A stretch of DNA of 64,000 nt, from contig NIVC01001708.1 of assembly GCA_002269645.1 (NCBI GenBank), positions 1 to 64,000 of the forward strand. Direction: 5' to 3'. Below are positions 1 to 38,477 of the stretch, in pieces. The stretch's first letter is position 1; every line of letters starts with the position of its first letter. Under the pieces are notes generated by a model. The model was not told where the DNA came from, did not search any database, and worked only from the letters and a program-made list of their open reading frames with translations. The position numbers and the translations under genes were made by a program. The DNA is from Macrostomum lignano. Taxonomy: Eukaryota.

Positions 1-1263
1 TCGGCATGAGAATACTCAACTGAGTTTATCTCTGTTCCTCTCCTCGTCCTTCTTTGGACTTGCTGTCAGATTGAGTTCTGACCCATTCGTCTATAAGACG
101 AATCCCTGCCGTCCGCGTCTGTTACCGCCAAGTTATCCTTAGCTCCCCAAGTGAGCTCGCCTATCGCCAGCGGTTCTGATACCGCCCAGCATCATCAGCA
201 TCGCCTGATCTACATCAGCGCCTCGTCGCTCCAGCGCATCGCCGCTTCACCGTCTGCCTGACTGCAGCCTACAGCCGCCCTCGTCACTCCGCCTCTCTCT
301 CTCTCTGTGCAGCTGCCGGTAAGTTCCTGCTACTAATTTGTGCTCTAATTGCCTTTGCTTATCCGGGGTTTGCCTATTTTCCATTGTCTGATTAGAGAGC
401 TGAGCCAATTGTGATACCGTATCTTTTGCTGTATTTTACTCAATAGTGAAGCCGCCTAATTGCCTGCTTATTTGCCTAAGGCCTAATTATTAACTATTAA
501 CTAACTTCATCATTATTCAATCTTTCACCATCATTTCACTCATGGCTTGCTAAGCCTTTCTCCCGGGGTGGCAAAGCATAAGGAAGTTTGGGTAAGCTAA
601 TGGCCTCTCCCCGTGCAAAGCCCGCCTGTGAGTGCGTGCTGCGGGCCGCGTGTGCGTGCAGTAGAGGGATTAGCGAGTCTTGGCACAGAATGGCAGTAGG
701 AAGGTTGCAACCCCATGCTAACGCGTCCCTTCGCCCTGAGCAATCTAAACTGTAGACAGTACATGTTCGCCTCATACTACTCTTAGTAATCAAAGTCGCA
801 AGTCAGCCTCGCTCACAGCCACAAAGGATCCCCTGCTGAGAAATCCTCCAGGATTGAGCCCAGAGTTCCCGATCATGCCCCAAGCAGAGTCCCTGTACTC
901 GGCTGCATGCGTCTCCCCTGTTAGCCTAAATCCCCTGGTAACCAATCCAGGCGGGGCTCTAGCCTCGAGAGGTCTGGTAGAAAGATCCAGGTGCGCCAGG
1001 TCACATAGAGTGGTGGCAGCCACTCGGTCATACCATGACCGAGTGACCAACTATTGCACCTTGGCTACAGGTGGGGTCCATGTGGGTCCTTGGCCCTCTG
1101 GTCACGAAGCGCTACCAAAGCTACTAATCATGTGGGCGGGACAGTCTGGTGCTGGAGGTCCGTCAGGTCATTGCCCGGTCATAGGCAGCCTACGGTCATT
1201 GCCCCCTCTAGCCATGCGTTCGTCTCTCTACGGAGCGGACAGGCGACAAGGGCGGTTACATCA
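1..1263 (+). repeat. 5' LTR (R/U5 part) of Gypsy-1
   Basis: Direct repeat of 10096-11364, ending GGTTACATCA. Confidence 0.95.
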
Positions 1264-1266
1264 AAA

Positions 1267-1284
1267 TGGTGGCAGCGGTGGGAT
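1267..1284 (+). promoter_or_regulatory. Primer-binding site, tRNA-Leu
   Basis: TGGTGGCAGCGGTGGGAT is the complement of the eukaryotic tRNA-Leu 3' end (...ATCCCACCGCTGCCACCA), 3 nt after the LTR. Confidence 0.9.
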
Positions 1285-3600
1285 CTGGTGCAAACAGCGC
1301 TGAGTTTCGGACTGGTGGTTTAGATGTGACAAGCGCACCTGTGGCATCCCTCAGAATGGTGGCCGAAGCGCAAAGAGTGCCATGTCTAAATCTACCAATC
1401 GTAAAAATCGCCAATCGTCATTCTCTTCTCCCATGGCGTGAGGCAACAAAATCCAAAAATATTAATGTAACTTTTCAAATTTTTCGGGCTGCGAATTCGT
1501 TCAATTCATTCGAAATTTCCAAATTCATTCATTCGCCAAAAGCCCCTGATTCAATTTAAAATTAATTTAGCCGATCAGTTTCAGCGCTAGAAAGTGTGAA
1601 GTGGTAGACGAGCGGATTTGATTACAATCAGAATAGCTACCTGGTAACGGAGTGTGTGAAGAACTGCGAAAGTGAATTTTCCGGACTCACTTTCTATCAT
1701 GTAATATCTTATTTCCCCTCCCTTTCTTTCTCTCGCCTACCTACAAGCAGAACTGTGTGAGTGTTGAGGTGGACAGCAGCCAGGTACGGAGCCTCATCAC
1801 GCAAGCACAGCGGAGCTGGAAGCGAAGCATTTCTTTCCTTTGTCCTACCTCTTTCTTTTACTCGGGGCGAGTGTAACAGTCGCTCTCCTGATCGCTCAGT
1901 TAATCCTAGAAATGCGTAGAGACCGGAGCGTGTTTTGTTGCCATTAGAATGAACAGCTATCAAGGGCTATGGGGAACTCGTATATATGCATAGTAAGGGA
2001 AGCAGTAGTCATGGCCTTGGAAACATTGGGGATACCAAAGTCTCGCAGGAATGGGAATAGCGGTGTGATTGTATCTCTGTAGGGTATCAGTGTGACTCAA
2101 AAATCTCGGGCTAAAAAAGTGTCACCTCCTATGGAATACCTGCGATCAGCCCGGACCTGAATTCTGCGGTAACCCCTGGTGCCTTCATGGCTGGGATTCG
2201 ATCCCAACGTGTCTGCTGACTCTCCCACTGTATTGCAGACCGGTAGTAACTGCTTTGGTTGCATTTGGGCTGGTGCAGTGGCTGGAAATAGTAGATCCAT
2301 AGTATCCTATTGATAGTGGAGTTCAGTGAGTATTGGAATGGTGTACTGGAAGTCTGGTGGCCCCCAGTGATCTCGTAATGTTTCCTGCTGCATTCTCCTC
2401 CTTTAGTAATTCCTCCCCCCTGCTGTCAGTCTGATAGGGGAGGTGGGTGTGCCAATCAGCCCGACCCGGTAGAACGGCGCTCCTGCCCGACTTGTCAGCC
2501 TGGCCCAGGAAGGCGCTATTGCGCAACTCTTTTCCCCTCTGGCCACTGCAGCCCACTAAGCGCTTAGACGCAGGGTTGCATGCAGTCCCCTAATGTAAAG
2601 CCCCGGTACATAGAGTGCCACCCCAAGTGCCCCGCAAGGTCAATAAGACGGGTTGACGTCTCTGGCAACTTGGAATAACCTAGATGGAGGTACCGCTGTC
2701 TCCTGGTAGAACCGGGCGTTCAAGTACAGTAAAGTGGAGAGGCTGACAACTGTAGGACTTTCTCCGCCATCAGATAAAGGTCCCAAGTATGCTATTTCGA
2801 GCTGCAGCAAAGGTGGAGTATCGGAGGGCAAGCATTTCAGGAAGATACTCACTTAGGTCTGTTTATCCTAGGAAAGCGGGCGAGAGTTTCAGGCTTGTAA
2901 TCCGCCTAACCTGAAAACTTCGGGGACAGTTTAGTCTGGACTCCCGCTGCGCGCCTTCGCTCTGAACAGAAGGGGGAGGTCTTGGTTTTTGTGGATTCTG
3001 CTAGACGTAGGGGAGCTGGATTCCCGCCTTTTGTGAAGCTGCGTGTACAAGATTGGTAGTCCTGAGGTGGAAGCCCCACTGGACTCCGACGGTTTTCCGG
3101 CTGTGCAAGGGCAGTAAAGTGGGAGGACCTCCATGGGGATTGCTCCCGCCACTTGGGTTTTTGGGTCCAGGCGCCAACGCTTCTTCGTAGTAGCTTTCTT
3201 AAGGAAATGGGGTCCGGCGCGCAACCCTAGGGGAGAATTTGTACAGGTGCCGTAAGTCCGTTTACGGTCGGCATTTGGGTTCCCTAGCATGGCCGCAAAA
3301 TGAAGGTCAAGTCTCTCTGAATAGCCAATTTTTCCCTGTCAGGATGTGCCATAGACAACTGGTAGTGGTAGCCGCAGTTTGAGTCAGTGTGCTTTGCCGA
3401 GTGAAGCCGTTAGGACTGCCTAAATGGAATTATGTGGAGCCACCCGTTTTTCAATTTGTTTTCTTCGACGCCGCAAGTGTGTGAGTTTTGTCTGTGTTTG
3501 TGTGTTTCGGATCAACTTTTCGGTCTTTACCTGTAGTTGCCCCGGTTTTCTTTTCTTTTCCTTCCGGTAGTGGGTACTCCCCCAGCTATCCGGCTTTCAC

Positions 3601-6600
3601 ATGTCACGGGCGCGTGGAGATAGGGTCGTAGAAGCTGTGTGCGCAGACGCCCCTGGTCAACCACCCTCGGCCGCTGACACCCCAGCAGTTGCCGCCCCCG
3701 CAGCCGCAATGGCCGCAGCCGCTGGTAATCAGGCCAACCAGCCTCCAGATGCAGTAGTTACTGATGAGCCTGACATAGGAGCTGCCGCTCCTAACCCAGA
3801 ATCAGGGGGGCATGTCGCCGTTGCGGCTCCTCCCGTTTGTCAACCTTCTTCAGTCATCGTCCTAGAACCGAAGGTACGCCCCCAGTTTCATCTCGACCCA
3901 TTCAATGAGTCACGGGACAACATCTTCCTGTGGGTGGGCGGCTCGAATTCAAGTTCAAAGTGGAGGACATCAGCACCGATGCCGATAGAATCCTCACCCT
4001 AATCAGCCACCTACAAGGCGAACAGCAAGATATCGTCGTCGGCCAGGCGAGGCGGCTTGGCACCTATTCTCAGCTGCGTGACATGCTGGTGGAACGTTGC
4101 GTAAGTGTGTGGAGCCCCATGGCCCGACACTGCTTCAACCAGACGCTGGAGCAGGAGCCCGAGGAGAGTGACTTCCGCTTCGCGACCCGCCTGCTCCGCA
4201 CCCTCCAGTGGACCATGCGTGGCCGGCCGCCGGACGAGATTGATCTGGAAGCGCAACTTGCCTATATGTCCAAGGCCCGGATGCCGCGAGATGTGCGAAT
4301 TCAGCTCCTGGCGCAACGACAGTTCCCCGATGTGACCGCTCTCGTGACTCGTCACCAGGAGCTGAGCGAAGCCGTACAGTTGGCGGAGGCCTTCGACACC
4401 GACTCGCCGGCCCAGCCAGAAGAAACCGAACCCGACCAGCCAACACCGTCTCTACCTTCGCCACCGCCGCCGTCTCCTCCGAAGGCTTGGTGGGTGGCGA
4501 CGGGAGGCGATATGGAACTAACACCGTGGTCGGAGACTACCGTCAGAGTGCGAGGGCGACCTTGGGAAGGCGACTGTCTGGTGGAGGGAGTCGACATGGA
4601 AGCCTTCCGGAGATCGCGGTCAGTCGCTCGTTGGACCAAGCCGTAGACGGGTGGGTCCGAGTTCGCCTCATCAACTGGTCCGAAGAACCGGTACAGCTGC
4701 CCGCTGGCACGGTAGTAGCGCAGGCGAGCGCCTTAAAGGAAGTGGCCCTGGTCAACCGGATTACGCCAATGGGCAACACCGGGCCCGGCCCCACAGCCAC
4801 TCCAAAGGATTCAACAGCTGCCAGGAAGCCGCCGGACTGGATGAAAGACCTGGAGATGGGCAGTCAACTCTCTCCCCAGGAGCGGCAACGGCTATTACGC
4901 CTACTCAACGACAACACCGATGTCTTCGCCGAGGAGGAGAACGACCTGCGGGTCACCGACGTCGTCACACACGAAATCAAGTTGACGGACTCGAGGCCCG
5001 TCAAGATGCATCCAAGACGCCTCCCTCAGGCCTACCAGGAAGAAGTGCGGCACCAGGTGCAGGGCTGGCTGGAGACCGGCAAGGTAAAGGTCTCCAAGAG
5101 TCCTTACTCCTCCGCGTTGGTCTTGGTCCCCAAAAGCGATGGATCGTTACGAGTGTGCATCGATTTCCGGGAGGTCAACGAGCGCAGCGTGGCCGAGGTA
5201 ACCCCTCTGCCTCGAATCGATGAGCTGCTGGCTTCGCTGGGCGGGTCGGCGTACTTCACGTCCCTCGATCTGCGGAGCGGTTACCACCAAGTGCCCATCC
5301 AGCCGGAATGCCGCCCCTACACTGCATTCGCTGTGCCCAATATGGGGCTGTTTGAATGGAACGTAATGCCGTTCGGACTGAAGGGCGCCCCAAGTACCTT
5401 CTCTCGGCTGATGAACCTGGTGTTGGCCGAGCTCCAACCCGCAATCGCAATGGCCTACATTGACGATGTCATCGTGCATTCTCGCGATTTTAGCACCCAC
5501 CTGAATCACCTGCAACTTGTCTTTAACAAATTAAGAACAGCAAACCTGCGGCTGAAGCCGTCCAAGTGTGCTTTCGCCAAATCCGAGGTCACCTTTCTAG
5601 GATATGTGGTCTCGAGAGAGGGCGTCGCACCCTGCCCGCACAAGACGTGTGCCATTGACACCTGGCCGCGGCCCCAGAGCGTCACGGAGGTCCGCCAATT
5701 CTTGGGGAAGGCCGGATATTATCGGCAGTTTATTCCCGACTACAGTGAGGTGGCCGCACCACTGCACGCCCTGACTAAGAAAGGGACGAAGGACATCCCG
5801 GGTCGCTGGGGGCCCGAGCAGGAACAAGCATTCGAGAAGTTAAAGCGCGCCTTGGTTACCGCCCCGGTGCTGCACCACCCAGATTTCGGGCCTCAGGCGG
5901 GCATCTTCGTGCTCGACTGCGACGCGAGCTTGAATGCCCTGGGTGCAGTCCTCAGCCAGAGGCAAGCGGACGGAAGTGAGCGGGTCATCGCCTACGGGAG
6001 CCGAAGTCTGGTGTCTAGTGAGCGTAACCACTGTGTCACCAAACTGGAGATGCTCAGCCTAGTGTTCTTTACGCGACAATTCCGGTATTACCTGCTAGGT
6101 CGCCGCTTCATCGTCCGCACTGACCACCGCTCTCTGACGTGGCTAAGAAATTTCAAGGAGCCGACCGGATTGATCGCTCGCTGGTTTACTCACCTCGCTG
6201 AGTACGATTTCGAAGTGGAATACCGCCCTGGGCGGCTACACACCAACGCCGACGCGCTCAGTCGCCGGCCTGCACACCAGCATGGGGACTGTCCCATCTG
6301 CCGACCGCCAGAGGACGCCCGACCACCAGGGGAGCTGGACGAGGACTTGCGAACTTTCCGAGTGGAGACAAAGAGGCGTCTGCTGGAACAGCGGGACCTC
6401 CTCAGCAAGGCGGAGCTCATGGAAGCGCAAAGGAAGGACCCTGCCTTGGCCTGGATCATGCGACGACTAGGAGAAGGTGCAGAGAAAGCCCCGCCAGCTG
6501 GGACGGAATTGTGCCCACCCTTGGTGCGCCGGGTGGCCCCTTTTTGGGGCTTGCTCAGTGTGGACGAGGGCGTACTAAGGATTGATGTGGAGGGGGTCGC

Positions 6601-8230
6601 GGCCAAGAAGAAAATCGTGTTGCCCGAAAGCTTGGACCAGAAGGTGTTCCGGTTGCTGCACGACGATCCTCTGGCCGGGCACTTTGGGCGAAGGAAAGTG
6701 GACGAGCGCTTTCGCCAACGGTTCTGGCGCCCCGGCCTGCACCGACGGATCGCCGAGATGTGTGCGGCCTGCGAGTGCTGTTTGCGGTCCAAGCCGCACA
6801 AGCGGGCCAAAGCTTCGCCGCAATCTCTTGAACTTAGCGAGAAGTTCTCTCGCATTCACTTGGATTTTGTGGGGCCCCTGGGTCGAGGCCAGAAGTCAAG
6901 GAAGGGGAACACCAGTATCCTCACGGTGACGGACAGCTACACCGGCTGGGTCGAAGCTTACCCTACCCGGGACCAGACATCGAAGACCGTCATCCGTCTG
7001 CTGGTGCAGGAATACATACCGAGGTTCGGAGTACCTGACTGGATACACACGGATCAGGGACAGCACTTTGAGTCCCGGGACTTCCAGCGCTTTTGTGACT
7101 CTCTGGGTATCCGCAAAACCCGCACGACGCCATACCATCCTCAATGCAATGGGAAGGCCGAAGTCCAGCACCGCACGATCCGGGCCCTGTTGACGGCGCA
7201 GCTGGAACAGGACCACGACTTGTGGGATGAGAAGCTGCCGGCATGCCTCCTGGCGATGCGTTCCAGCCTGAACCGCATGACGGGGTATTCCGCGTTCAGC
7301 TTAACGTACGGGCAAGAGGCTCGACTGCCCTTGGACGTCGCTCTCGAGCCAGCTGAGGCCGCTCCCGGGCATGCTGCCTACGCGGCCCGTCTGGCGGCGT
7401 ATCTCGATCAGGCGCGCGCAGATATCGAGGAAAAGTTCGAGACCCGAGTTCAACACCAAGCGCGCCGACCGCAGAAGTGCCGCAGCCTGGACATCGGTGA
7501 CATTGTGTTCTTGGCCAACCCTCATCTGGAAGAATGGGAGATTCCTAAGTTTCACAAGGCGTTCACCGGCCCCTGGAAGGTGGTGGCCCAGCCGTCCCAG
7601 GCCGTGTTCGACATCGCCCCGGTGCACCCCCAGCCAGGCAGGCCCGCGGTATACCGGACCCATCGCGATACGCTCCGTCCCGCGCCGGCCCAATATCAGC
7701 CCGAGGTGCCTCAGGCAGCTGCCCGCAAGTCTCCTGCCGGACCGGGCCGACCACCAGTTCGCCCAGCGCCTCGAGCCCCGGAAGCACCGCAGTGGTTCCC
7801 CGACTCCGATTCGGAGGAAGAAGAGGAAATGTATGTCAGATGGCCTCTGCGAAACCGGCTCCCTCCGGTGACGGTTCCCGCCGAAGTAGCATTGCCGCCG
7901 GCAAACCATCCAACCCAACCAGTTGACGTCCCAGAGCCCGCCGCCGATCAGGAACCAGTAGAGCAGGGCCCGCCAGCCCCCGAACTGCCCACGCCCCCCG
8001 CAGCGGGAGAGCTCGAAGCCAACGAGGAACCGCTGGATGAGCCACCGTTGGGCCCCGTGTTGCGCCCTCGGGCTGCCCTGAGGCGCCCAGAACGTTGGGG
8101 TTACGAGGTGCGGCGGCTGGATTCGACCCAGGAGGCAGATGACTCCGACTACGACTGGGGCCCTCCATCGGACCCAGAGGACTGCTGGAACAGCAGCATC
8201 AGTGGGTCACTTGACTGGGATCCTCCCTGA
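3601..8230 (+). CDS. Gag-Pol polyprotein of Gypsy-1 (Gag, linker, RT, RNase H, integrase; no protease), with two apparent 1-bp frameshifts (~3940, ~4608)
   Basis: ORFs 3601-4002, 3930-4646 and 4487-8230 join into one protein (IFLWVG/RLEFKF; DMEAF/PEIAVSRSL). RT LDLRSGYHQV and YIDD; RH DCDAS and TDH; IN H-H-C-C, LDFVG, TDQG, KAEVQ, GPW. Confidence 0.92.
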
Positions 8231-8531
8231 GGTGCCACTCTTGCGGGTCAGCCCCTGGCCCCGTGGAGATTAGAATCATTATTAGGACGATGACTTCACC
8301 TTAGGCACTGTACCGTATGACAAGATATATTTTACTACTGCAATTGGCTCAGTTTGACATGAAAGGCATGGCGAATGGGTGGATCTCGCATAATGTACAG
8401 GTGAAGAGAAATCAGGTTGGTGATGGGACTTACCGAGTAGTTGTATAGTTTGGAAAATCGCGCTGAGTGCCTTGGTTGGAAACTGCGACTCCGTGTAGGT
8501 TGCAGGCAGCCGGCTCCCGTTATCAGTGGCG

Positions 8532-8540
8532 CCTTTTATA
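8532..8540 (-). promoter_or_regulatory. Candidate antisense TATA box in the Gypsy-1 3' UTR
   Basis: Minus-strand TATAAAAGG, the same 9-mer as the LTR TATA, followed ~100 nt later by a CG|GTAAGT donor at 8433. Confidence 0.5.
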
Positions 8541-9127
8541 CAGTGGCCAGCGCACGGCGCGGCGCCTCCCAGCCTACAACCGATCGCCCCGAAGCCCTCT
8601 GACTGGCTGAAGCGGGGTCCGAGCCTTCAAGGACGCTAGGCCTCCGTGCGGTTGAACTCCCGGCGAAATTAGCTTATTAATTTACTGCGCTGCATTAGTA
8701 TTTTTCCCCTGTGTAATCGTCATTCTCCCCGAGGCTCTGCCCTTGGCTGTGTGCTAGCAACCCTTCCCCCTTCTTTTTCCCCACTTCCCTCACCCTTCCC
8801 CGTTTCCTCTCTTTCCCAGCTGCGCTTCTATCCAATTATGATAATTTATTGTTGACAATTCGCTATTTTTCTCCCTACTATTGCGCTGTCTGTGTTTCCC
8901 CCCTCCCACTTTAGCCACAGCAACAGTTGAAATTTTTGAAATTCTGTATTGCACTCCAACCTATGTATCTCGTTTTGTGAATTTATTGCTATCCCCTCTA
9001 TTTTATCGCCTTTTTCCATTCCCGCTCGCGGTTTGTTAATTCTGTGATTTCACGTTCGGTTGAGATCCCGCTCCCGTCTGTGTGGTTCCATGTTGGGCAG
9101 TGATGATGACGGAACCAGTTCCGTCAC

Positions 9128-9144
9128 AAAAGGCAGTGGGGGTG
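9128..9144 (+). promoter_or_regulatory. Polypurine tract of Gypsy-1
   Basis: AAAAGGCAGTGGGGGTG immediately before the TGATGTAACC start of the 3' LTR. Confidence 0.85.
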
Positions 9145-11364
9145 TGATGTAACCACGCTCTGGTCGCGGGATAGGGCATGGGAACTTTTTGAAAGTGCCT
9201 CCTATCCCGTGCACCCTCTGCACAGAGCTGTCGAGACTCGGCCAGGTCTCCGACCGAGCCTGGAGACTCCCGCTCTGCTGCACCCCTCCTGCTGCCTTGG
9301 TCCCGTCTCTCCTGCCGCCACACCTGCCTTTCCGGAGCCCCTACCCCTTTCTGTACCTCCCCCTCTACCCTATCTCTTCTGTTCCCGCCCTATTCTTCCT
9401 GTACTTTCTCTACCTCCTCCCTTTTTTTTGTCTCCCTCTGCACTCTTTTCCTGCGCTGTCCCCTCTTTCCCTGTGTCTACTTACAGTACTTTGTGTGCTC
9501 ACCGTCTCCCCATCCCCTCTCAAACTCCCAAACGGTGACGCAAGTCGTGTGACCCCTTCTCCCCCTCGGTGACTCATCGATGACTCATCCCCCTCTCTTG
9601 CGCAACCTTTTCTCACGCTATTGTTCTCCTTCCCAAATTTCTCATGTGACACCCACCCCACCTCCGCTTCTATTGTTCTCGTTTTTGCTTCTTTTGTTCT
9701 CTCGACCCCCACCAATTATCACATTTTCTCCGATTTTCTCTTTCTTTTGTTCTCGTTTTCGCACCTAATTATCACCTTTTCTCCAATGTTTACTTTTCCA
9801 TTGTTCTCAGTTTTCCCCAATTATCCCCGATTTCCAATTCCTTTGTTCTCGACCCCAGCCCTATTGTTCTCAATGTTTGCTTGCGCAACACTTTCGCGAC
9901 CACCCGCTGCGCCAATTATCCCCCCACCCCACCTCCGGATTGCGCAATTTCCCGATTTCTCATGTTGCTATGCCGGTCTCATGCTTCTCATCATGACTCA
10001 TTCTGACGTCATTCTGCCGGCAGCCAATCAGAGAGAGGGAGCCATGGTAACGACCTTGAGGAGGCGGCTGTGAGGTCTATAAAAGGAAGCGATTTCGGCA
10101 TGAGAATACTCAACTGAGTTTATCTCTGTTCCTCTCCTCGTCCTTCTTTGGACTTGCTGTCAGATTGAGTTCTGACCCATTCGTCTATAAGACGAATCCC
10201 TGCCGGTCCGCGGTCTGTTACCGCCAAGTTATCCTTAGCTCCCCAAGTGAGCTCGCCTATCGGCCAGCGGTCTGATACCGCCCAGCATCATCAGCATCGC
10301 CTGATCTACATCAGCGCCTCGTCGCTCCAGCGCATCGCCGCTTCACCGTCTGCCTGACTGCAGCCTACAGCCGCCCTCGGTCACTCCGCCTCTCTCTCTC
10401 TCTCTGTGCAGCTGCCGGTAAGTTCCTACTACTAATTTGTGCTCTAATTGCCTTTGCTTATCCGGGGTTTGCCTATTTTCCATTGTCTGATTAGAGAGCT
10501 GAGCCAATTGTGATACCGTATCTTTTGCTGTATTTTACTCAATAGTGAAGCCGCCTAATTGCCTGCTTATTTGCCTAAGGGCCTAATTATTAACTATTAA
10601 CTAACTTCATCATTATTCAATCTTTCACCATCATTTCACTCATGGCTTGCTAAGCCTTTCTCCCGGGGTGGCAAAGCATAAGGAAGTTTGGGTAAGCTAA
10701 TGGCCTCTCCCCGTGCAAAGCCCGCCTGTGAGTGCGTGCTGCGGGGCCGCGTGTGCGTGCAGTAGAGGGATTAGCGAGTCTTGGCACAGAATGGCAGTAG
10801 GAAGGTTGCAACCCCATGCTAACGCGTCCCTTCGCCCTGAGCAATCTAAACTGTAGACAGTACATGTTCGCCTCATACTACTCTTAGTAATCAAAGTCGC
10901 AAGTCAGCCTCGCTCACAGCCACAAAGGATCCCCTGCTGAGAAATCCTCCAGGATTGAGCCCAGAGTTCCCGATCATGCCCCAAGCAGAGTCCCTGTACT
11001 CGGCTGCATGCGTCTCCCCTGTTAGCCTAAATCCCCTGGTAACCAATCCAGGCGGGGCTCTAGCCTCGAGAGGTTTGGTAGAAAGATCCAGGTGCGCCAG
11101 GTCACATAGAGTGGTGGCAGCCACTCGGTCATACCATGACCGAGTGACCGACTATTGCACCTTGGCTACAGGTGGGGTCCATGTGGGTCCTTGGCCCTCT
11201 GGTCACGAAGCGCTACCAAAGCTACTAATCATGTGGGCGGGACAGTCTGGTGCTGGAGGTCCGTCAGGTCATTGCCCGGTCATAGGCAGCCTACGGTCAT
11301 TGCCCCCTCTAGCCATGCGTTCGTCTCTCTACGGAGCGGACAGGCGACAAGGGCGGTTACATCA
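9145..11364 (+). repeat. 3' LTR of Gypsy-1 (2220 bp)
   Basis: 10-bp inverted termini TGATGTAACC/GGTTACATCA; distal 1.27 kb matches the 5' LTR. Confidence 0.93.
9570..10086 (+). promoter_or_regulatory. LTR U3 enhancer/promoter: 3 AP-1, 1 CRE, 3 C/EBP motifs, CCAAT and TATA
   Basis: TGACTCA at 9570, 9581, 9994; TGACGTCA at 10004; TTGCGCAA at 9598, 9881, 9940; CCAAT at 10024; TATAAAAGG at 10078. Confidence 0.7.
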
Positions 11365-27060: not shown

Positions 27061-28238
27061 ATAATATATTGTAACTTGAATATTTAACAATAAGTATAAT
27101 ATTGACTCTATCAACATTGACATTATTTCATTATTTAGTATTTGCAAACATGTTTTGTTACATATCACACTACTTTACTATGTGTATTTCACTATTTCAC
27201 TTGTTCAACCTTGCAACTATAACTTTGAAGAGAAAATTGTTCAATGTTTAATATTCCAAGAAAATAGACAGTTTCTTTGTAAAACCAATAATCAATATGT
27301 AGCAGCCCTAGCTCGTGCCTACGTAAATTACGCGCATTATTTTTCTTATATTCTTACTTAGTCTATACATTACTTGCATAAATTCAATTACTCCACATTA
27401 AACACTATTTTTATATATAGTCATGTCTGTAGTGCTAAACCGAAATATTATTGTTATAATGTATACGCCATGATGGCAAAATTTACTATAAAAGCAAGCT
27501 AAAATATACGGTAGAAAATCATCCTTCTGACGTGCTTGGTATATGCAAGCTTCTATCCTATTCTCAAGCACTAGATGAACAGTTGTGCTAAAAATAGAAC
27601 TTAGATTCGTCAGTCTTCCTTCCTTAGAGAAGCGTACAATAGAGACGTACAGCCATTCCCTTTCCCTTGAGCGCTCCCCAGAGCGATCCAAGCCCGCGCA
27701 AACCCCCATCCCTTTGGATGTATAATAGTCCCAAGAAGCCCTTCGTGCGCTTCCCCAGACATAGTGATTGCCAAGCCCGCCCCGGCTAATTGTCCCTTAA
27801 TATTAGACTCTTGATTCCGCTACGTAATTCCCAATGAAGCAACTTGCCCTCCCTGCCAGCATTCCCTATTAATCATTAGAATTCCCCACTAGCGCGCCAG
27901 GCAACTCTAATCCACCACAAAGCCCTTACCTCCCCTATTAATATCCCCCCGGACTGAATAGAAACTGTCTTGCCGCTCGGACATACCATGCCACCAGGAG
28001 CAACCTACGGTTTACTCCTATTAGTAGTAGAATTAGTAGAATTAGTAGTAGAAACCCCATTATAACTTAGTGACAAACAGTGAGAGTAACTTATTAACAA
28101 ACATCCCTACAACAAAGCATAAAATAAAACTTCTCTCCCCCACGACCCCTACAACAAAATTGGTAGCAGCGGTAAAGGATTAGAATCTGGAGAAACGCGC
28201 ATCCCAGCTTAATTTCCCATCCCAATCCCTGAAGTATA

Positions 28239-29203
28239 ATGGCCGCAGGAATTAATGAAGCCCTAGGACTCTTAGCCGAAGAGCTCCGTAATCGATTAGA
28301 ACTAGGTCCCCTTAGGCATGTAAAGATCCAGAAATATGTCCCCAGCCAAGATATTAGAATATGGCTCACTGCATTTGACCAGCGATGTGAGAATGAGGGC
28401 ATCAAAGAAGAAAACCAAAAGCAGGAATTGCTGACTAACTTAGATCTAAGCACTGCATTTGCAGCAGTCCAATGCCTCAACCTCCCAGCTAATCTCCCCT
28501 ATGAAGAATTTAAGGAAAGACTGATAGAGAGATTTGAAAAAGTAGGAAGCTCTGCTGAATTCCGCGAAGAGTTCCAAAATCATTGTCAAGGTAGGAATGA
28601 GTCCACCGACAGTTTTGCTGATGCCCTGATTGAATTAGCCTCCCATACATTCCTAAATATGGATGCTGAGCAAAGAGAGGAAGAACTGATCGAGCAGTTC
28701 ATCAAAGGTGTGAGAACCCCTCCCGACACCCACGAAAAGCTATTTTTTGCCAAACCTGCTAGTCTTTAAGCCACCCATAGAATGTTGCGCAGAATTGAAG
28801 CTGCTTACCAGATGTCCCATAAAGGAGGAATTAGAGTAACAAAGGATGAGAAAGAGGAGCACAAGGTCAGAACCAATCAGTTGATCATTGACCAATAGAC
28901 CAAGATTGATCCCAAGAGAAACTCATCCAGAATTTGCAGAAGCAATTAGCCGAAACAGCGCAATGCGCCCCGCCATCTCAAGTATTTCCCCAGCAGCAGT
29001 ACAGGCAGCCACCCCCTCAGCAGTACAGGCAGCCAAACCCCCAGCTGTACAGACAGCCACCTCAGCAGCAGTACAGGCCCCAGCTGATGAACCAACCGCC
29101 AAGGCGTGAACCCCCAAGAAGGAATGAGCGTCAGCCCCCTAACCCGAGATATGAGCCGCTGAATTTCCGTAACACCCGCAACCTCCAGAATCCGGGAAAC
29201 TGA
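28239..29203 (+). pseudogene. Gypsy-2 gag, disrupted
   Basis: DIRIWLTAFDQRC...CQGRNESTDSFADAL...FIKGV; premature stop at 28767; Q/P-rich tail ending PGN-stop on GGGAAAC. Confidence 0.85.
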
Positions 29204-29699
29204 GTAGCCAGGGTCAAGAAGAGGCCACGCCCCTCAGGCCAAAATTCTGCTTACTCTCTGGCCTCCCCATCATTCAAAAACGCCCCCCAGCCAAGATACC
29301 GGCAACCTCCCCAGTATGGTTTCCGCTATCCCTGAAAAACCTCCCATGTACAGCCAATGCCTGTAAATAATGCAATATCTACCTCCCCAACAATTTCTCA
29401 CTACTTGCTTGCGACGAAATTGATGACGTCACGCCAATTGCCCCCATGACTCCCATGTGTACAATGCCCCCCATGCGACTACAGCTCATGCAACTGCTCC
29501 TCATGTAACCAACGCGACTAAAGTTCATGTACATCATGTGTTCATACCCCATGTACCCACTGCGCTTGCACCCCATGTATCCCATGCGATTAAAACCAAT
29601 AATGCTTTATTTAGTGCTGAAACCCGCTCAAAGAAGCGACAAAAGCCAAAGCCCAATTCCCTATCCTGAATCGACCTGACTAAGCTAGAAGGTTATGAA

Positions 29700-32600
29700 G
29701 CTGTAATTGTTAGCAATATCCAGAAAGAATCGATTGATTTCTTGCTAGAAACAGGCGCCAGAAATAATATCCTGAGCTGCTCAACCTGGTCTAAGCTATT
29801 CCGTTCCGATCAAATCCAAGACACTAGCAAAAGCATTAGTACATTTGACAGTACCCCAGTCCAATTAGAAGGAGAAGTATCCGCCCAAGAGAAGTTTGGT
29901 GATATCCAGATAGAAGTTGATTTCCTCCTATGCCGACATGATTGCGACAATATTTTAGGAATGGAATTTTTCTTATCCCAATGCAAAAGCATTCAGCTAG
30001 CCAAAGGAATGCTAGTGCTTAATGAAGGTACCTGTATACCCATGCAGTATACCCGCCTACCCGTGAAAGTTTGCCGTGTTTATACTCAAGAAAGAACAAT
30101 CATCCCAGCTAATAGTGCTCTCCGAATACCCGTGAAATTAGCCAAGAATTGCGAATCGAATTATGGCACCCCCATGACCATTGAAGCCATTGGCGATACT
30201 GACCAAACCCATGATTTCTCGTTAGAAATGGTTCCAACACTAGTAACTATGAAAGAAGGCAAAGGAATTGTTGAAATTATTAACCGCCACCCTGTAGACG
30301 TGAATCTAACTAAATAAAACTTCCCTAATTGGCCTAGCCAGACCCATGAAAGCTAGACCTGACCTATTGGCAAACCCCAACTCCCAACCCCCAACCCTCT
30401 GCAAAAGTCAACCAGACTCAATGTACTGAAGATTCCTGAATTAATGAAGTGAGCCTTGGCCCTGAATTATTGAATGAACAGCGTAAAGCAGTCATCGACT
30501 TAATGAAAGAAAACCGTGAAGCTTTTTCCCAGAACGAATTAGACATGGGCCTGACACACTTAGTAACCCACGAAATCTTTATTAAAGACCCCACTCCCAT
30601 TAGAATCCCAGCTAGACGCATCCCCCCGCACTTGCAAAAGCAAGTTGACGCCCAATTAGATGATATGCTAGCCAAGAACCTAATTAGACCCTGCTACTCA
30701 ACCTACTCCACATCCCTAGTAATTGTCCCCAAGAAAGATGGTTCCATCAGAATCGTTAGCGATTTCCGAGTGCTCAACTCAAGAGTTAATTACTACCCCT
30801 ACCCCCTCCCCAATATCCAAGAGACCTTCTCCCACCTAACTGGTAGCCAATATTTTAGCAGCCTAGACTTAAATTCAGGATACTGGCAAGTCCCCATCAA
30901 AGAAGAAGATAAGCATAGAACCGCCTTCTCCACCCTAACTAGAGGCCAATTTGAATACCAAGTGATGGCCCAAGGACTTTCCAATGCCCCCGGAACCTTC
31001 CAATGTCTAATGAATTTAGTCCTATTAGGAATCCAACATAAGTTTACCATGTCCTATATAGACGACATAATAATGGTCGGTTTTGCCAACCATTTAGATC
31101 ATTTAAGAGAAGTGTTTAAGCGACTAATTGCCGCAGGTCTAAAGCTGAGACCCAAAAAGTGCAATCTTTTCCATCACGAGTTAAAGTACTTAGGACACCT
31201 GATTGGCCGTCAAGGCATTCAAACAGACAAGACAAAGATTGAAGCAATCCAAACTTGGCCCCGTCCCAAGGACGTAAAAGAACTACGCAGTTTTCTTGGC
31301 CTATGCAACTATTATTGCCGATTTGTGAAAAATTATGTCGAAGTGGCTCACCCCCTATTCCAATTGACTTGGAAAGGAGTTCAGAATTTCCAATCTAAGT
31401 GGAGCAAGTGCATGACGAAGCCTTTGAGTCCCTGAAGCAGCGAATGATATCCACTGAAGTGTTAGCCTACCCCGAATTTGTCGATGATGAGAATGTGAAG
31501 ATAGTGCTCGACACAGATGCCAGTGACGACAGGATTGGCGCATGCCTTGGCCAAATCCAGAGTGATGGCATAGAGCGACCAATAGCCTTTTTTAGTAGAG
31601 CAATGAAGGAATCAGAGAAGCGTTACCCCATTACTTGGAAAGAATTGTTAGCCCTTGTCGACGCTATGAGGCATTTCAGATTTTATCTGATCGGCAAGAA
31701 ATTCTTAGCCTGAACTGATCATAAAGCGATAATTTGGCTCATGAGACAGACAGAAGCAATCGGAATCCTAGGTAGATGGATAGAGCATCTAAATGAATAA
31801 ACGAACGACATTAACACAGAAGCAGCGCAAAGCATTCCAATGCCGACAGATTGTCGCGAAGACCAGCTAAGATAGCTGAAGCCCCTGAAGTATCCCCTGA
31901 AGCAGCCCCGAACTTGCTGAAACAGCACCTGAAGTCCCTGACGCAGCCCCTGAGCCTGCTGAAGCGATCCCTGAAGCATCTGAAGAAAATTTTGAAAAAA
32001 CTGAGCCAATCCCTGAGAAAGTTGAGAAGTTGACCCCTGTTCCCCTGAGAGATGAGAGCGCTCCTGCTGAAACTAAGGACAACCCCATGTCCTAGTCACC
32101 TGAAGCCCTGACAGAAAGCGAGACTGAGCCTGAATGTCCCAAATCTAGGACAAAGCTAATTGTCTCAGGTAGAAAAGTAGATGAAAGAGAAGAAGAAACA
32201 GGAAAGTGTGAGAAGTTGTTAACTGATTATCTCCCCTGCCCCCTGAAGAAAGAACAGATTGAAGAAGTCCAAGCTGCTAACCCCATCATCAAAGCTCTGC
32301 TAGAAGCCAAGAAACAGAAGTTGAGCCAATTTCCCAAATCACCAGACGTGCCAGAAAAGATCAGTAAACATTTCGAACTGATGAAAATTGATAACAAATT
32401 ATTGACAATTGCCGAAGACGGAAAAAACAAAATAGTTTTGCCCCCATCCCTAGACAAAGCAGTTTTTATTGACTTACACTGCAGCCCCCTCACAGGATAT
32501 TGAAGTGAAACGAAGGCGCCGTTAGCAAGAGGATGGGAGAAATCAGCCGACACGCGCGTGATGCGTGAACAAGCATCCAGCCTTGGCAGCAACTCCCCAG

Positions 32601-35452
32601 ATGCACAAGATCTGCATGCCTAAAAATAGTCCTGATGATCGACGAGCAAGAAGCCCAGCCATGCGACCCTCGCGTGATGCATGCACAACCTCTGACCGAC
32701 ACTGCCTATTGGGCCTCGAAATCCCACTCTCTCCCCTACTGCTCCTATTCCTCGTTGCTCGCGTACAGTGTGCTAGCTTATAAAATATACTGATTGAAGA
32801 GGAAAGATCCTCGCCTGAAGTTTGAGAATGTGACTCTAGAGATCACACAGAGAAAGTTACCATCGAGGTCCATTGTTCGTTGTCTTCCTGAACTGTTGGC
32901 AGAAGGAAACGATAATATGGGAAAAAGCCATATAAATTGTCGTTTCAATTGGTTCCCTGACTGCGTGAGTCGCCGCTAGACAGAAGTCTCAGATACCATG
33001 CAGTTATCGCTCTGCTGCATGTCTTCAACAGCCATTCGAATGAATCGAGAACTGAGACTTTCCTGCCTTCAGTAAAGGAAGACTTCGAACTAAACAAGAC
33101 CAATGGACGAAGATCAAAAAGCGACACAGTTTACCCTTCCAAGAAGAAACTTTCGTTGAGAGATCTACACAATCAATTTGGTCAAGACGGTATTTTTCCG
33201 ACGTCATATTTAACTGCAATGTACCTTCAGCCAGCATCCCGATCTGACTGTCTACCAGACGCTGTTTCAATTTGTCGAGTCTCCGTGTCCAGTCCTATTT
33301 GCGTCACTGTTTAGGGCATCGAAAAGCCCATTCAATTTGTCGAGTTTCCGAGTTCACGTCAATCCCCCTCTCAGATCTGATTAAATAGTCAAGAGGATAT
33401 GCTGGTACAATTCATCCACTGTTGTCACAAGTTCACTTTGCCCTTTGACCAAATTTCGTATTTCAACAACATCAACTCAACTGCAAGTTACCAAGTGGGA
33501 CTGCGTATCGCAAGCAAATGCACAACTGTACGCCATGTCATCATTGCTCCAAGCTTATTTTCAACAGAGCTCGGAGGGCCTCGCTTCCCTGAAAAAAGAG
33601 CGACTGAAGTGAAACGAAGGCGCCGTTAGCAAGAGGATGGGAGAAATCAGCCGACACGCGCGTGATGCGTGAACAAGCATCCAGCCTTGGCAGCAACTCC
33701 CCAGATGCACAAGATCTGCATGCCTAAAAATAGTCCTGATGATCGACGAGCAAGAAGCCCAGCCATGCGACCCTCGCGTGATGCATGCACAACCTCTGAC
33801 CGACACTGCCTATTGGGCCTCGAAATCCCACTCTCTCCCCCTACTGCTCCTATTCCTCGTTGCTCGCGTACAGTGTGCTAGCTTATAAAATATACTGATT
33901 GAAGAAGAAAGATCCTCGCCTGAAGTTTGAGAATGTGACTCTAGAGATCACACAGAGAAAGTTACCATCGAGGTCCATTGTTCGTTGTCTTCCTGAACTG
34001 TTGGCAGAAGGAAACGATAATATGGGAAAAAGCCATATAAATTGTCGTTTCAATATCTAGGAAGAGATAAGACGCTCCAGAGAATAAGAGAAAGATTTTG
34101 GCGACCCGGACTGAGCACTTCTGTTGAGCAGTTAATTGCTGAGTGCATCCCCTGCCTTGAGAGCAAGAAAGGACACTTTGTTCAGGCCCCAGTCCAGTCA
34201 TTCCCCATTGGCGAAGCATTTAGCCGCCTGCCACCATTTAGCCATCCTGACAGTTGTTGATAGCACAACTAGATATCCCTTTGCTTTTCCCATTAGAAAT
34301 CAAAAATCAGACACAGTCATCAAGATACTACTGGAACAAATAGTAGCAGAATATGGACAGCCCACCTGGATCCACACAGACAATGGAAAAACTTTCGCCA
34401 GCAAACAATTTAAAGCTTTCTGTGAACTTTACAATATTCGCCATACCTTCACTACCCCCTACCATGCTCAATCTAACGGATTAGTAGAACGTTTTAACAA
34501 GCAAATTAAATCAATTATCACCTGCTTGATCAATAAGGATCATGGTGATTGGGACTTACTAATTCCCGCAGCCCTAGTAGCCATTCGCACCAGCCCCAAT
34601 GTAACAACAGGGTTCTCCCCGCATTTTCTATTATTTGGCAGAGAAGCTACTTTACCCTTAGATACTCAAATCAGAAGCGCAACCGAACACGCCGATTACC
34701 CCTCTTATATTACCAAACATGCCGAAAGATTAGAAGAAGCCCACAAAGTAGTAAGGAAGAAATTGGAAAAGATAGTTGACAAGAGAAAGACTGCTGCAGA
34801 AACCAATAAGCTCCCTCCGAGAGTCCCCATAGGTTGCCTTGCTTTAATTAATAATCCCCAATTAGACGCCGAAGAATCACACAAGTTCCATAGAAAGAAG
34901 CGATCAGAATTTTGAGTTATAGCCCAAATTTCCAAAGTCGTATTTAAGATCCAGAAGGAAGAAGATGGCAAACTGATTGGCAGAGAAATGCTAGTGCATA
35001 GAGACAATTTAACACCTGTGCCTAACTCCACCACAGAGCTTTTACTTAAGGGAAGCCAGGAGGATGCTCCCGCCCTTGTTTCTGCCCCTGTTTCCGCTTC
35101 CGCTCCTATCCCCATCTCTACCTTTGTTATCGCCCTTACCCCCACCTCAACTAAACCCAAGAGGAAACTCCCAGTCAAAGAAAGCAACCCCCACCAGAAT
35201 CTACCAAAATCAATACCCGAACCCGAAATAATTGAATCAGAAGAATCATCTGACAAAGAAGAAATAAATTGGCAATGTCTACTAAGAGAAGACAGCCGCA
35301 AAGAGATAGAAGAAGAATTGCCTGAAGCTCCGACAGAAGAGGAAGCAAGCGATGACTCAGAGAGTGAAGCCCCGAATGAAGAAACCAATCCCTTCCCCTC
35401 TTTCCTGCCCCGCGAGATCCCGAGCCCGCGCACACCCACCCCTACAATCTAA
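29700..35452 (+). pseudogene. Gypsy-2 pol (PR, RT, RH, IN) with stops, frameshifts and a TRIM insertion
   Basis: FLLETGA (decayed DTG), LDLNSGYWQV, YIDD, LDTDAS, LHCSPLTG[insert]LGRDKT...CIPC, IHTDNG, NGLVERFN. Confidence 0.92.
32501..34052 (+). mobile_element. TRIM-like non-autonomous LTR element inserted in the Gypsy-2 integrase
   Basis: LTRs 32501-32947 and 33605-34052 (1 substitution + 1 indel), TG...CA termini, TSD ATAT, PBS TGGTTCCCTGAC (tRNA-Glu), PPT AAAAAAGAG, 657-bp internal region with no recognisable coding sequence. Confidence 0.92.
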
Positions 35453-35823
35453 GGCGCCCAACCCAGGCCAGACAAAGATGCAACTGCCATCTAAAGCGCT
35501 TATTGACAGCCCTCAGTCTGTTGCGCAACCTCAAGTTTTAGCCCTCTCGCCATCCCCGATTGCGTGACTAACCCCAAATTTCACACAAAGAAGGAACTCA
35601 TCCTGGGCAATGTAAATGTATAAAGACCCCCTAAATTATCGACCCAAAACAAAACTAGAGTGCAAAGAAGATGAAAAACAGGATGAGTCACGAAAATGAG
35701 GAATCCAAAAGAATGGGAACAAAGAGAATAATAACCCCGACACTTAAACCCAAGATTACACAACAAGCAAACAAACTATTCTGTTACCCCGCTAATTATT
35801 GATCCAGCTATCTTGAATTCGAT

Positions 35824-36866
35824 ATGTCCGATAAAGCAGAGAAGTTAAGAAGGCTGCAAGATGAGTTGAGTTTAAGCATCAGTGACAAGGGAGAAATCAT
35901 CAGTGATGAGGAAAATGAGCTGCTGATCCCAGATCGACAGGCTACTCAACCCCAGCCGCCCGGACCAAAACCCCGCCTAGCTTCTGTGGTAACTCAACCA
36001 AGAGCGCCCCCAAGCACGACCCCGAAGGATCGCGCCGAACTATTGCGACGCCAGGCCGATACCCCAGTGTCAGTTCCCCCAGCCATGTCAAAATGCGACC
36101 ACCGAACAGCAAAACTGCCATCATGCTATCCCGGAGCCAGGCGCCCAGCACTAGCTACATGCATTGTTTGGGACCTCGCCAGCTGTCCTCGACCATTGCA
36201 ACGCCCCAGTCAAGACCGAAGTTGCCTGCCAAGCAGCCCCTAGCCCGGCAATCGATAGCTAAGAAGCCGCCGACAACTGCTTCGCCGCCCTGGCCAAGAT
36301 CACCAGTCCAACAGCCGCCAGCAGTTTTATCGTCCCGCAATCAGATACCAAGATCGAGATCCCCAGTCATGAGTCAGCCGCCGAGACAGCCTCCGTTGGT
36401 AATGCCACCCCCGCAATACAGCATGCGACCCCAACACCAGCCAGCCAATAGGTCGCCTGTTGCTCTGATACCATCATTGATGGATAACGCCGAGCATGAT
36501 CCCCTGCAGGAAACCGGTGGTGATTTCAGCATCGCGATCACGCAATTGCCCAGCTCTCAGCATGACGAGTACCGACGCCTGGCCAATAGCATAAAAGACT
36601 ACATCATTAGCATGGGGCGACTCCGCTTGGATGGCAGGCCCCTACCAACTAGAGAGGCACTGCGGCCCACGCTTCAGGCATTTCAGCAAATGCAGCTGTA
36701 TCAGGCTGTTGCTGCCTGGAAGCGGGCCGTAGCCTATGCGCTCCACAAGCTGAACAACGGCTGGACAAACTGTGCAAGTGTCTGCACTGAAGTACTATGG
36801 GTCGGCCTTGAGTGTGGCTGGCCATACCAGGATAGACTACCTACTGCTATGGTACAATATATGTGA
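35824..36866 (+). CDS. Extra ORF of unknown function in the env position of Gypsy-2 (~347 aa, one frameshift at ~36093)
   Basis: ORFs 35824-36243 and 36093-36866 overlap at an A run; acidic N-terminus, Pro/Ser/Gln-rich middle, globular-looking C-terminal ~125 aa. Confidence 0.6.
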
Positions 36867-38477
36867 ATGAACAGTATATATCGCTTATAGTAGTATGAGA
36901 CTTACCTTTTTCCGCCTTGCAGTAAAACTTTCATTTTCTGTTGCAATATGCCTTATTCTATCTTTGTATGCCTTTGTATTTGTATTATGTTTTGCAATAT
37001 GTTGAATTGTTTTAATAAAATTTCACTCATTCTTTATTCAATTTCATTACTTAAGGGAAGCCAGATATAGCAGCCCTAGCTCATGCCTACGTAAATTACG
37101 CGCATTATTTTTCTTATATTCTTACTTAGTCTATACAATTACTTTCATAAATTCAATTACTCTGCATTAAACACTATTTTTATATATAGTCATGTCTGTA
37201 GTGCTAAACCGAAATATTATTGTTATAACGTATACGCCATGATGGCAAAATTTACTATAAAAGCAAGCTAAAATATACGGTAGAAAATCATCCTTCTGAC
37301 GTGCTTGGTATATGCAAGCTTCTATCCTATTCTCGAGCACTAGATGAACAGTTGTGCTAAAAATAGAACTTAGATTCATCAGTCTTCCTTCCTTAGAGAA
37401 GCGTACAATAGAGATGTACAGCCATTCCCTTTCCCTTGAGCGCTCCCCAGAGCAATCCAAGCCCGCGCAAACCCACTCCCCTTTGGACGTACAATAGTCT
37501 CAAGAAGCCCTTCCCGCGCTTCCCCAGACATAGTGATTGCCAAGCCTGCCCTGGCTAATTGTCCCTTAATATTAGACTCTTGATTCCGCTATGTAATTCC
37601 CAATGAAGCAACTTGCCCTCCCCGCCAGCATTCCCTATTAATCATTAGAATTCTCCACTAGCATGCCAGGCAACTCTAATCCACCGCGAAGTCCTTATCT
37701 CCCCCATTAATATCCTCCCGGACTGAATAGAAACTGTGTCTTGCCGCTCGGACACACCACGCCACCAGGAGCAACCTACAGTTTACTCCTATTAGTAGTA
37801 GAATTTGCACAATTTTTCCCAAAACTCAAGAAATCCTCAAAAACCCCATTAAAACTTAGTGACAAACAGCGAGAGTAACTTATTAACAAACATCCCTACA
37901 ACAAAGCATAGAATAAAACTTCCCTCCCCCACGACCCCTGCAACAAATACAACTGAGTAATAAGTATAAACTTTGTTCAAGTTATACTTTACCCATAAAT
38001 ACTTATACAATGCTACCTATACATTTTTCTTTACTTGAGCAGTCAATTTTTTAGTAACATAAGCTATAAGCTATATAAGCTAGTTTACATAAGCTATAAA
38101 AGTGAGTGTTAGTCATAGTAATTTATTTTCTAAATTTCAATTTCAGAAAATTTTGATTTTGAAAAGAGACAACTTTTGGATTTTGATTTCAATAGAAAAT
38201 TCACTTTCAGAATATCTCTAGACTCCTAGTCGTGTTTGCACAATTATATTCTTGTTAGGCACAGTCAGTTAATTGATTCAGTTAATTACTTTTCATAATT
38301 GCAGCTTGAGCTATACACTCTTTACAAATAGCCATGCCGTTGTCAAATATTTAATTTTTTTCTCTTTCTTTGAAAAAAACAATTTATGTTTCACATTTAG
38401 AAATTGCTAGTTATTATATTAAATTTGATATAAGCTTTCTTGGTTTGCTTTCTAGATTTTTTTTCTATTCCAACTAT

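Follow-up and report, generated by a model that had tools for sequence, protein, structure and literature searches.

The stretch of DNA analysed here (the window, 64,000 nucleotides of a Macrostomum lignano contig) carries a Ty3/gypsy element with a third open reading frame, ORF3, in the position of env, and the question was what this gene is and what it does for the element. An earlier sequence-only reading had taken it for a captured or element-specific accessory gene with its own expression signals. Comparison of related copies indicates that a clade of flatworm Ty3/gypsy elements has an old third gene, which is under selection and is not Env, and that positions 35824-36866 hold one copy of it, broken by a frameshift.

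Table 1 Features of the Ty3/gypsy element and of ORF3 in the window
Feature	Position	Strand	Remark
5' LTR (TG...CA)	27298..28156	+	4-bp target-site duplication AATA directly before
LTR block complementary to tRNA-Leu 5' end (bipartite PBS, second half)	27973..27995	+	in LTRs of A1, A2 and B; host tRNA-Leu gene
Primer-binding site (PBS), tRNA-Leu type	28161..28172	+	
gag, split over two frames	28239..29203	+	Retrotrans_gag E 0.0013, under cut-off
pol: protease, RT, RNase H, integrase, acidic tail; several frameshifts	29670..35452	+	
Nested 1.55-kb element inside pol, 450-bp direct repeats	32501..34054	+	breaks up pol
TATAAAG	35619..35625	+	not conserved; probably no promoter element
TTxCACAA motif, putative ORF3 mRNA start region in A1, near backbone/cassette crossover	35756..35763	+	
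CTAAT...CCAG	35792..35807	+	not conserved; splicing not seen
ORF3 accessory gene, 347 codons, one frameshift near 36098	35824..36866	+	dead copy of live family
N-terminal acidic leucine helix LxxLxxxLxL (NES-like or activation-domain-like)	35845..35874	+	
Linker motifs: Rx(P/A)TRP-type (imperfect in window copy) and RxxLLxxQA helix	35932..36057	+	
PhixxRLG (ALYREF-type) motif site	36156..36173	+	window copy no longer matches
RSRSP motif, disordered linker	36351..36365	+	
C-terminal basic all-helical domain, without family match	36501..36863	+	
T-rich 3' UTR	36867..37052	+	AATAAA 37014 unconserved, upstream of conserved TTCAC-type motif
Polypurine tract (PPT)	37053..37065	+	
3' LTR	37066..37945	+	first TG decayed to TA; AATA directly after

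The element is a complete but decayed Ty3/gypsy (Metaviridae) LTR retrotransposon, in which LTRs, PBS, PPT, target-site duplication and the pol order PR-RT-RH-IN were all recognised. Its two LTRs differ by 45 substitutions in 861 nt, and the closest reverse transcriptase (RT) matches stood at 60% (one match) and then at 41-51%, none of them carrying a clade label. Primer binding in the LTRs of the family is bipartite, with part of the tRNA-Leu block repeated in tandem in some families and PBS-like units duplicated in some families of the clade. The start codon of ORF3 and its frame of about 347 amino acids with one slip had been read correctly, and the protein has 347 residues when the frameshift is read through with X.

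The C-terminal domain (CTD) of the window ORF3 had at least 141 matches in the contigs of genome G000 (best 150 of 207 candidates scored), and a diverged CTD homologue used as query gave at least 140, mostly different ones (best 150 of 254 scored); a second branch of the family lies beyond the first 141 matches. We fetched 80 loci, picked for diversity and with long open frames favoured, and found an element context in 75 of them. Linkage to gypsy pol at other loci, a check proposed in the sequence-only reading, was seen in the 43 copies with pol upstream; another 22 had a mini-gag gene and paired LTRs, 10 of the remaining 15 had a PPT, and 5 had none of these. Absence or lack of conservation elsewhere, which had been named as a ground for giving up the idea, was not what we observed, for of the 65 element copies 44 had an ORF3 intact from its ATG, 12 had a broken one and 9 were left uncalled; the share of intact copies is biased upward because the choice of loci favoured long open frames. 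The position of the gene is fixed, between pol and PPT. RT and CTD trees (29 copies minus 6 near-duplicate or frameshifted rows) gave three groups, A1 (which includes the window), A2 and B, with A2 unsupported in both trees.

Beyond G000, 1.84 billion representatives were searched with a profile, which gave 6 proteins, five of them named M. lignano. The named homologues are M. lignano hypothetical proteins, one of which (P0001) is encoded at loci L061 and L151 of G000. Several annotated "hypothetical" host proteins (P0001, P0004) thereby turn out to be retrotransposon cargo. P0003 and P0007, from assembly contigs, are intact group-B ORF3s with at most 48% identity to any G000 match listed, so the family is also present outside G000. 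A degraded tandem of one group-A and one group-B ORF3 (G000:C1403:9410-11070) and a degraded A/B chimeric CTD (G000:C2082:50001-50555) were also seen. No host donor gene for ORF3 was found, and the single host-like copy of the domain looks element-derived.

The dN/dS of ORF3, also named as a check, was well under 1. For the CTD it was 0.22 between the window and L031 and lay at 0.03-0.07 for L031/L034, L040/L041 and L040/L042, the most similar pairs having 0.07, 0.05 and 0.03; these values come from a subset of pairs among 29 copies, in which distant pairs were saturated and gave unreliable values of up to 0.96. Linkage with gypsy pol and purifying selection both support the reading as an element-specific accessory gene. 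RT was nearly uniform within groups (dS 0.13-0.40 in A1 and 0.02-0.03 among L121, L138 and L142) while CTD dS was saturated, so the ORF3 alleles are ancient and have been exchanged onto common backbones. In the pair L121/L142, for example, RT was 100% identical in amino acids with a dS of 0.03, and the CTD was 49% identical with a dS of about 2.2. Fast point evolution of ORF3 was rejected on the same grounds, since CTD dS was saturated at RT dS of 0.02-0.4. In all six discordant locus pairs examined, homology stopped 50-115 nt upstream of the ATG, and for the window against L038 it stopped at 35734. Among 1147 pairs from 50 elements whose CTDs were less than 55% identical, gag was common to 67, U3 to none and R to none, and U3 was common only to element pairs with CTDs at least 70% identical. 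These comparisons indicate that ORF3 and U3 move between elements as one cassette, though their coupling may reflect mere adjacency and missing crossover homology.

Modelling describes ORF3 as an acidic leucine helix, a disordered linker and a new helical domain of 125 amino acids. AlphaFold2 predicted a confident six-helix fold for the CTD (pLDDT 85) and, for the full-length protein, a short N-terminal helix followed by a mostly disordered linker, which agrees with the proposal of an unrecognised helical C-terminal domain of about 125 residues. The profile and Foldseek searches suggested for this domain left it without a family match: neither the CTD nor the full-length protein matched a Pfam family, ORF3 matched no PDB sequence, Foldseek gave no significant match to the CTD in the PDB and viral sets, the ESM Atlas gave no feature match via P0001, and a profile search with full-length ORF3 found nothing, although absence from such match lists proves neither a new fold nor the exclusion of known folds. 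The top VIA-align neighbour of the CTD was the Gle1 CTD (Z 7.6 and 8.3, rmsd 4.1, 122-123 residues aligned, 4-9% identity), a score within 1 Z of unrelated proteins and under the noise bar for helical domains, so that it speaks at most weakly for an export role. The view that ORF3 is not Env and has neither a signal peptide nor a transmembrane (TM) segment was borne out, as 19-residue hydropathy never reached 1.6 in any of 29 ORF3 proteins and the N-termini are acidic. The profile and fold matches listed included no class I or III fusogen.

The first 35 residues of ORF3 have a net charge of -6 to -12, the linker consists of 40-67% P/Q/A/S, and the CTD has a pI of 7.9-11.1. Several motifs recur far above shuffled expectation, although the shuffle counts overstate independence because the ORF3 copies are related, and shuffling also removes ordinary helical periodicity. 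The Rx(P/A)TRP-type motif was found in 25 and RxxLLxxQA in 24 of 34 ORF3s (shuffled 1.7 and 0.2), the RSRSP-type motif in 10 of 34 linkers (0.9), and PhixxRLG in 11 of 34 linkers (0.13) from all three groups, its absence from the other 23 including most of group B. By the class patterns for nuclear export signals (NES), 18 of 33 N-termini (9 of 10 in A1) had class 1/2 spacing against 2.9 after shuffling, and these are predicted NES only. NLS-like K[RK]x[RK] motifs occur in part of the A2 and B proteins, several A1 N-terminal helices have no aromatic residues, and the ORF3 proteins share neither an RGG box nor an arginine-rich motif for RNA binding. The group-B N-terminal helix might be read as a UAP56-binding motif (UBM); a PDB search with this helix gave no UBM, and a search of G000 for the FYTT family gave nothing above cut-off.

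Of the claim that the gene has its own expression signals, the general part stood for the family, in which A2 and B carry TATA boxes, but the TATA box, acceptor and poly(A) signal named in the window copy did not. The motifs themselves are there (TATAAAG at 35619, CTAAT at 35792, CCAG at 35804-35807), except that AATAAA begins at 37014 and not at 37015, and the 3' UTR is AT-rich as described, with a GC content of 27%. As a promoter, TATAAAG found no support: it was present in none of 12 relatives having the same upstream block, 11 of which carry NACAAA. Four of the 6 upstream ATGs in the 300 nt before the ORF3 start lie between TATAAAG and the start. Shuffles of these 300 nt contained a TATA-like 7-mer in 25% of cases and a branch site with YAG in 10%. 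The proposed acceptor fared no better, with a YAG at most 40 nt from the ATG in 5 of 13 relatives and no GTRAG donor in the 300 nt upstream of the window ATG. In contigs of four sequencing runs guessed to be RNA (low cover, possibly DNA), no splice joint at 35807 was listed and two contigs cross the site unspliced; none of these runs is recorded as RNA, and their patchy cover of ORF3 has no power to show starts. Cis- or trans-splicing at 35807 was rejected. A poly(A) signal ahead of the PPT was likewise rejected as a family trait. AATAAA was found in the 3' UTR of 3 of 13 A1 and 2 of 13 A2 copies; it arises by chance in 8% of shuffles.

A TATA box at -160 to -60 of the ATG was found in 5/5 A2 and 9/17 B representatives (0.44 and 0.28 expected), often accompanied by CCAAT boxes in these sister subfamilies, and in 0/13 A1 copies. 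The TATA promoter of the sister subfamilies is a clear one, situated 70-150 nt upstream of the ATG. The A1 subfamily has the TTxCACAA motif (or a variant, in L036 and L037) in 12 of 13 copies, and the sequence from there to the start was free of ATG in 12/12. Going by these conserved elements, an internal promoter probably drives ORF3; in the window subfamily the start is likely a TATA-less site near 35756 giving an intronless message, and the mRNA most likely ends within the 3' LTR.

Twenty-two of the 80 loci (L119-L154) are satellite LTR elements that lack pol. Most measure 4.2-5.5 kb and have LTR pairs of 99-100% identity, and they have the ORF3-LTR cassette in common with full-length partner elements. 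They encode a conserved mini-Gag-like protein of 191-197 amino acids with a hydrophobic stretch and a CxxC...HxC finger, without a Pfam match, whose dN/dS was 0.06-0.37 at a dS of up to 1.35. Counted by hand, 39 of 46 mini-gag matches had an ORF3 match at most about 6 kb downstream. The satellites are young and have kept both ORF3 and a mini-Gag under selection. In one satellite (L141:4702-6900), an inserted ORF of 733 amino acids has Cys/His clusters and only Pfam DUF1280 at E 0.018; it resembles a transposase of the Transib/Chapaev type.

A stand-alone gene at L116:4713-5069, also present at L117 and L118, encodes only the CTD (118-119 amino acids; P0006/P0008). It has kept the group-B promoter, to which 160-220 nt are still some 70% similar and whose TATA lies at -151, and no gag, pol or PPT was found within 10 kb of it. 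L116-L118 are one locus in three copies with long flanks in common, differing pairwise by 4/1, 3/2 and 1/1 synonymous/nonsynonymous changes. The gene is a candidate domesticated gene, the alternative being an orphaned element fragment. It is without the N-terminal helix and the linker motifs, as expected of a transdominant inhibitor, and might act as a putative brake on ORF3.

As for function, we tentatively favour, at a little under an even chance, a putative RNA-export adaptor like ICP27, Rev or CERV over a transactivator like foamy virus Tas. The observed base of this reading is the fixed place between pol and PPT, purifying selection, cassette exchange and retention in pol-less satellites. 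The conserved TATA and CCAAT boxes suggest a short intronless mRNA with an internal start and an end in the 3' LTR. From the motifs, one would expect PhixxRLG to dock on the RRM of ALYREF (TREX/NXF1 route), the acidic leucine helix to serve as a CRM1-type export signal or a UAP56-type docking helix, and the RS/RP stretches to be phospho-regulated. The basic helical domain is a candidate for recognising the element's own RNA, from which it would follow that ORF3 stays with its LTR. The adaptor would bring the host mRNA-export machinery to the intronless genomic RNA of the element and, more speculatively, the domain-only gene of the host would be a transdominant inhibitor. Against export, PhixxRLG is missing from 23 of 34 ORF3s and class 1/2 NES spacing from 15 of 33, and the LTR comparison found no ORF3-specific RNA response element. 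An LTR CCGCTC block was rejected as such an element, being explained by tRNA-Leu pairing. According to the available text of PMC10309623, ALYREF and UAP56 of C. elegans retain unspliced RNA instead of exporting it, which also counts against export.

A transcription activator could equally well be built from an acidic helix, a linker rich in Q and P and a basic domain. A Tas-like ORF3 would be made first from the internal promoter, its CTD would bind the cognate U3 and its acidic helix would activate the LTR, with the domain-only host gene as competitive repressor. The acidic N-terminus, P/Q/A/S linker, basic CTD and NLS-like motifs in part of A2 and B fit this, U3 is never common to different ORF3 classes, and position and putative internal promoter resemble those of Tas (PMC13220597, as far as its available text goes). 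No DNA-binding fold was among the matches listed, however, U3 repeats such as TTTGTTTAA (by eye) are common across ORF3 classes and not class-specific, several A1 helices are without aromatic residues, and PhixxRLG and RSRSP would be left unexplained. We regard such a transactivator as rather unlikely, though a serious candidate.

A sequence-specific anti-silencing factor, following VANC-like logic, would protect the element that encodes it against silencing by piRNA or chromatin, and frequency-dependent selection would keep old alleles. Ancient balanced alleles on homogenised backbones, family-specific tandem repeats in LTR R/U5 and the retention of ORF3 in satellites point this way, but the repeats may stem from replication slippage, ORF3 showed none of the domains or motifs known from silencing, and its conserved motifs indicate mRNP factors. 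This reading is distinctly unlikely. Still less probable is a cytoplasmic assembly or translation cofactor (a Gag or RNP partner), or a protein whose ALYREF motif sequesters host export factors. ORF3 is retained with mini-Gag in the satellites and weakly resembles MIF4G/MA3/W2 helical repeats, but its alleles recombine freely with differing Gag types, which argues against a specific Gag interface. A neutral passenger or degraded Env/Gag fragment deserves hardly any credence and is refuted by the selection and profile results: the frameshift of the window copy would suit it but is outweighed by dN/dS well under 1 at saturated dS, 44 of 65 intact element copies, TM segments in 0 of 29 proteins and, for the Gag match that had been named as refuting, an hhalign probability of 0.2% (E 0.3) to the element's own Gag and no Gag Pfam match.

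Returning to the export adaptor, its closest animal parallel is CERV of C. elegans Cer1. This novel protein of an animal Ty3/gypsy element is not Env, is required for genomic RNA to be exported, and has a candidate NES and proline-directed phosphorylation; ORF3 is likened to it as a non-Env protein of such an element. In the available text, CERV has a spliced mRNA and G-protein-like and Cys-loop domains, whereas ORF3 would have an internal promoter and has one predicted helical domain; as CERV is described there, the allelic cassettes, satellites and host-like copy also set ORF3 apart (PMC10309623). Herpesviral ICP27 and ORF57 have what is predicted for ORF3, a disordered N-terminus with a leucine-rich export signal and an ALYREF-RRM motif, followed by a globular C-terminus, and they serve intronless RNA, as is proposed for ORF3 (PMC6177440; PMC13370473, available parts). 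The residues that ICP27 employs, W105/R107/L108, lie in its disordered N-terminal part ahead of the globular C-terminal domain (PMC6177440), and PhixxRLG has been validated as a ligand of the ALYREF RRM and is similar to ligands from viruses (PMC13370473). ORF3 differs in having no RGG box and no sequence or fold match to ICP27 among those listed (for the ICP27 homology domain, neither a Pfam nor a PDB sequence match), so the likeness is one of short motifs and would be convergent.

Bdelloid LTR retrotransposons also have an extra non-env ORF after pol, and the non-autonomous rotifer element TelKA2n, with truncated gag, little pol and its third ORF kept, parallels the flatworm satellites; the bdelloid ORF3s, however, are known enzymes or TM/env proteins and typically spliced, whereas the flatworm ORF3 is soluble and without family match (PMC5408684). 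Oikopleura Tor3b/4b express a third ORF from an internal promoter and, as here, combine similar Pol with divergent other genes, but that ORF is a membrane glycoprotein (Env), unlike ours (PMC4402516). Tas, of the Retroviridae, is likewise an accessory gene close to the 3' LTR, and its promoter is internal, as is likely for ORF3, but its DNA binding and transactivation are proven, whereas both are only putative for ORF3, for which no homology was found (PMC13220597). There are thus precedents for non-env ORF3s, for internal promoters and for export factors of retrotransposons, and the novelty lies in a variant with a new domain family.

We found no earlier description of a Macrostomum retrotransposon ORF3 in the literature searched, although Repbase, Dfam or GyDB entries, the earlier LTRharvest classification or subscription papers may already record it. 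In PMC12801592, "ORF" and "accessory" are absent from the main text and the supplements had no match to three element motifs, and the four gene names of ORF3 homologues gave no mention in the literature found or in the available part of the PMC5730564 supplement. Nuclear exit of intronless LTR-retrotransposon RNA is understood for few elements, and CERV is the sole element-encoded export factor that we found for an animal Ty3 element. The present family supplies a new folded domain, satellites, a series of natural alleles carried by pol backbones that are nearly identical, and a host gene that is a candidate inhibitor. Transgenesis and LTR reporters are already in use in Macrostomum (PMC12801592, available text), so export against transactivation, and allele-LTR specificity, are directly testable. 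All parts jointly, namely an independently evolved ICP27-like adaptor with dozens of ancient LTR-matched alleles, cassette-stealing satellites and a domesticated CTD restriction factor, are unlikely to hold together; if they did, they would amount to a three-way arms race between element, mini-Gag satellites and host over nuclear export.

Some further observations concern the window itself. The nested element inside pol has TG...CA repeats and an ATAT duplication, contains no long ORF and reached very high contig depth in the four runs guessed to be RNA. Contig joints 31585-35731 and 34190-35416, seen in two runs each, omit much of pol and retain the ORF3 side; they are not GT-AG and are probably deletion derivatives. 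Window positions 117-11043 hold a further element, whose direct repeats are nearly identical and lie about 10.1 kb from each other.
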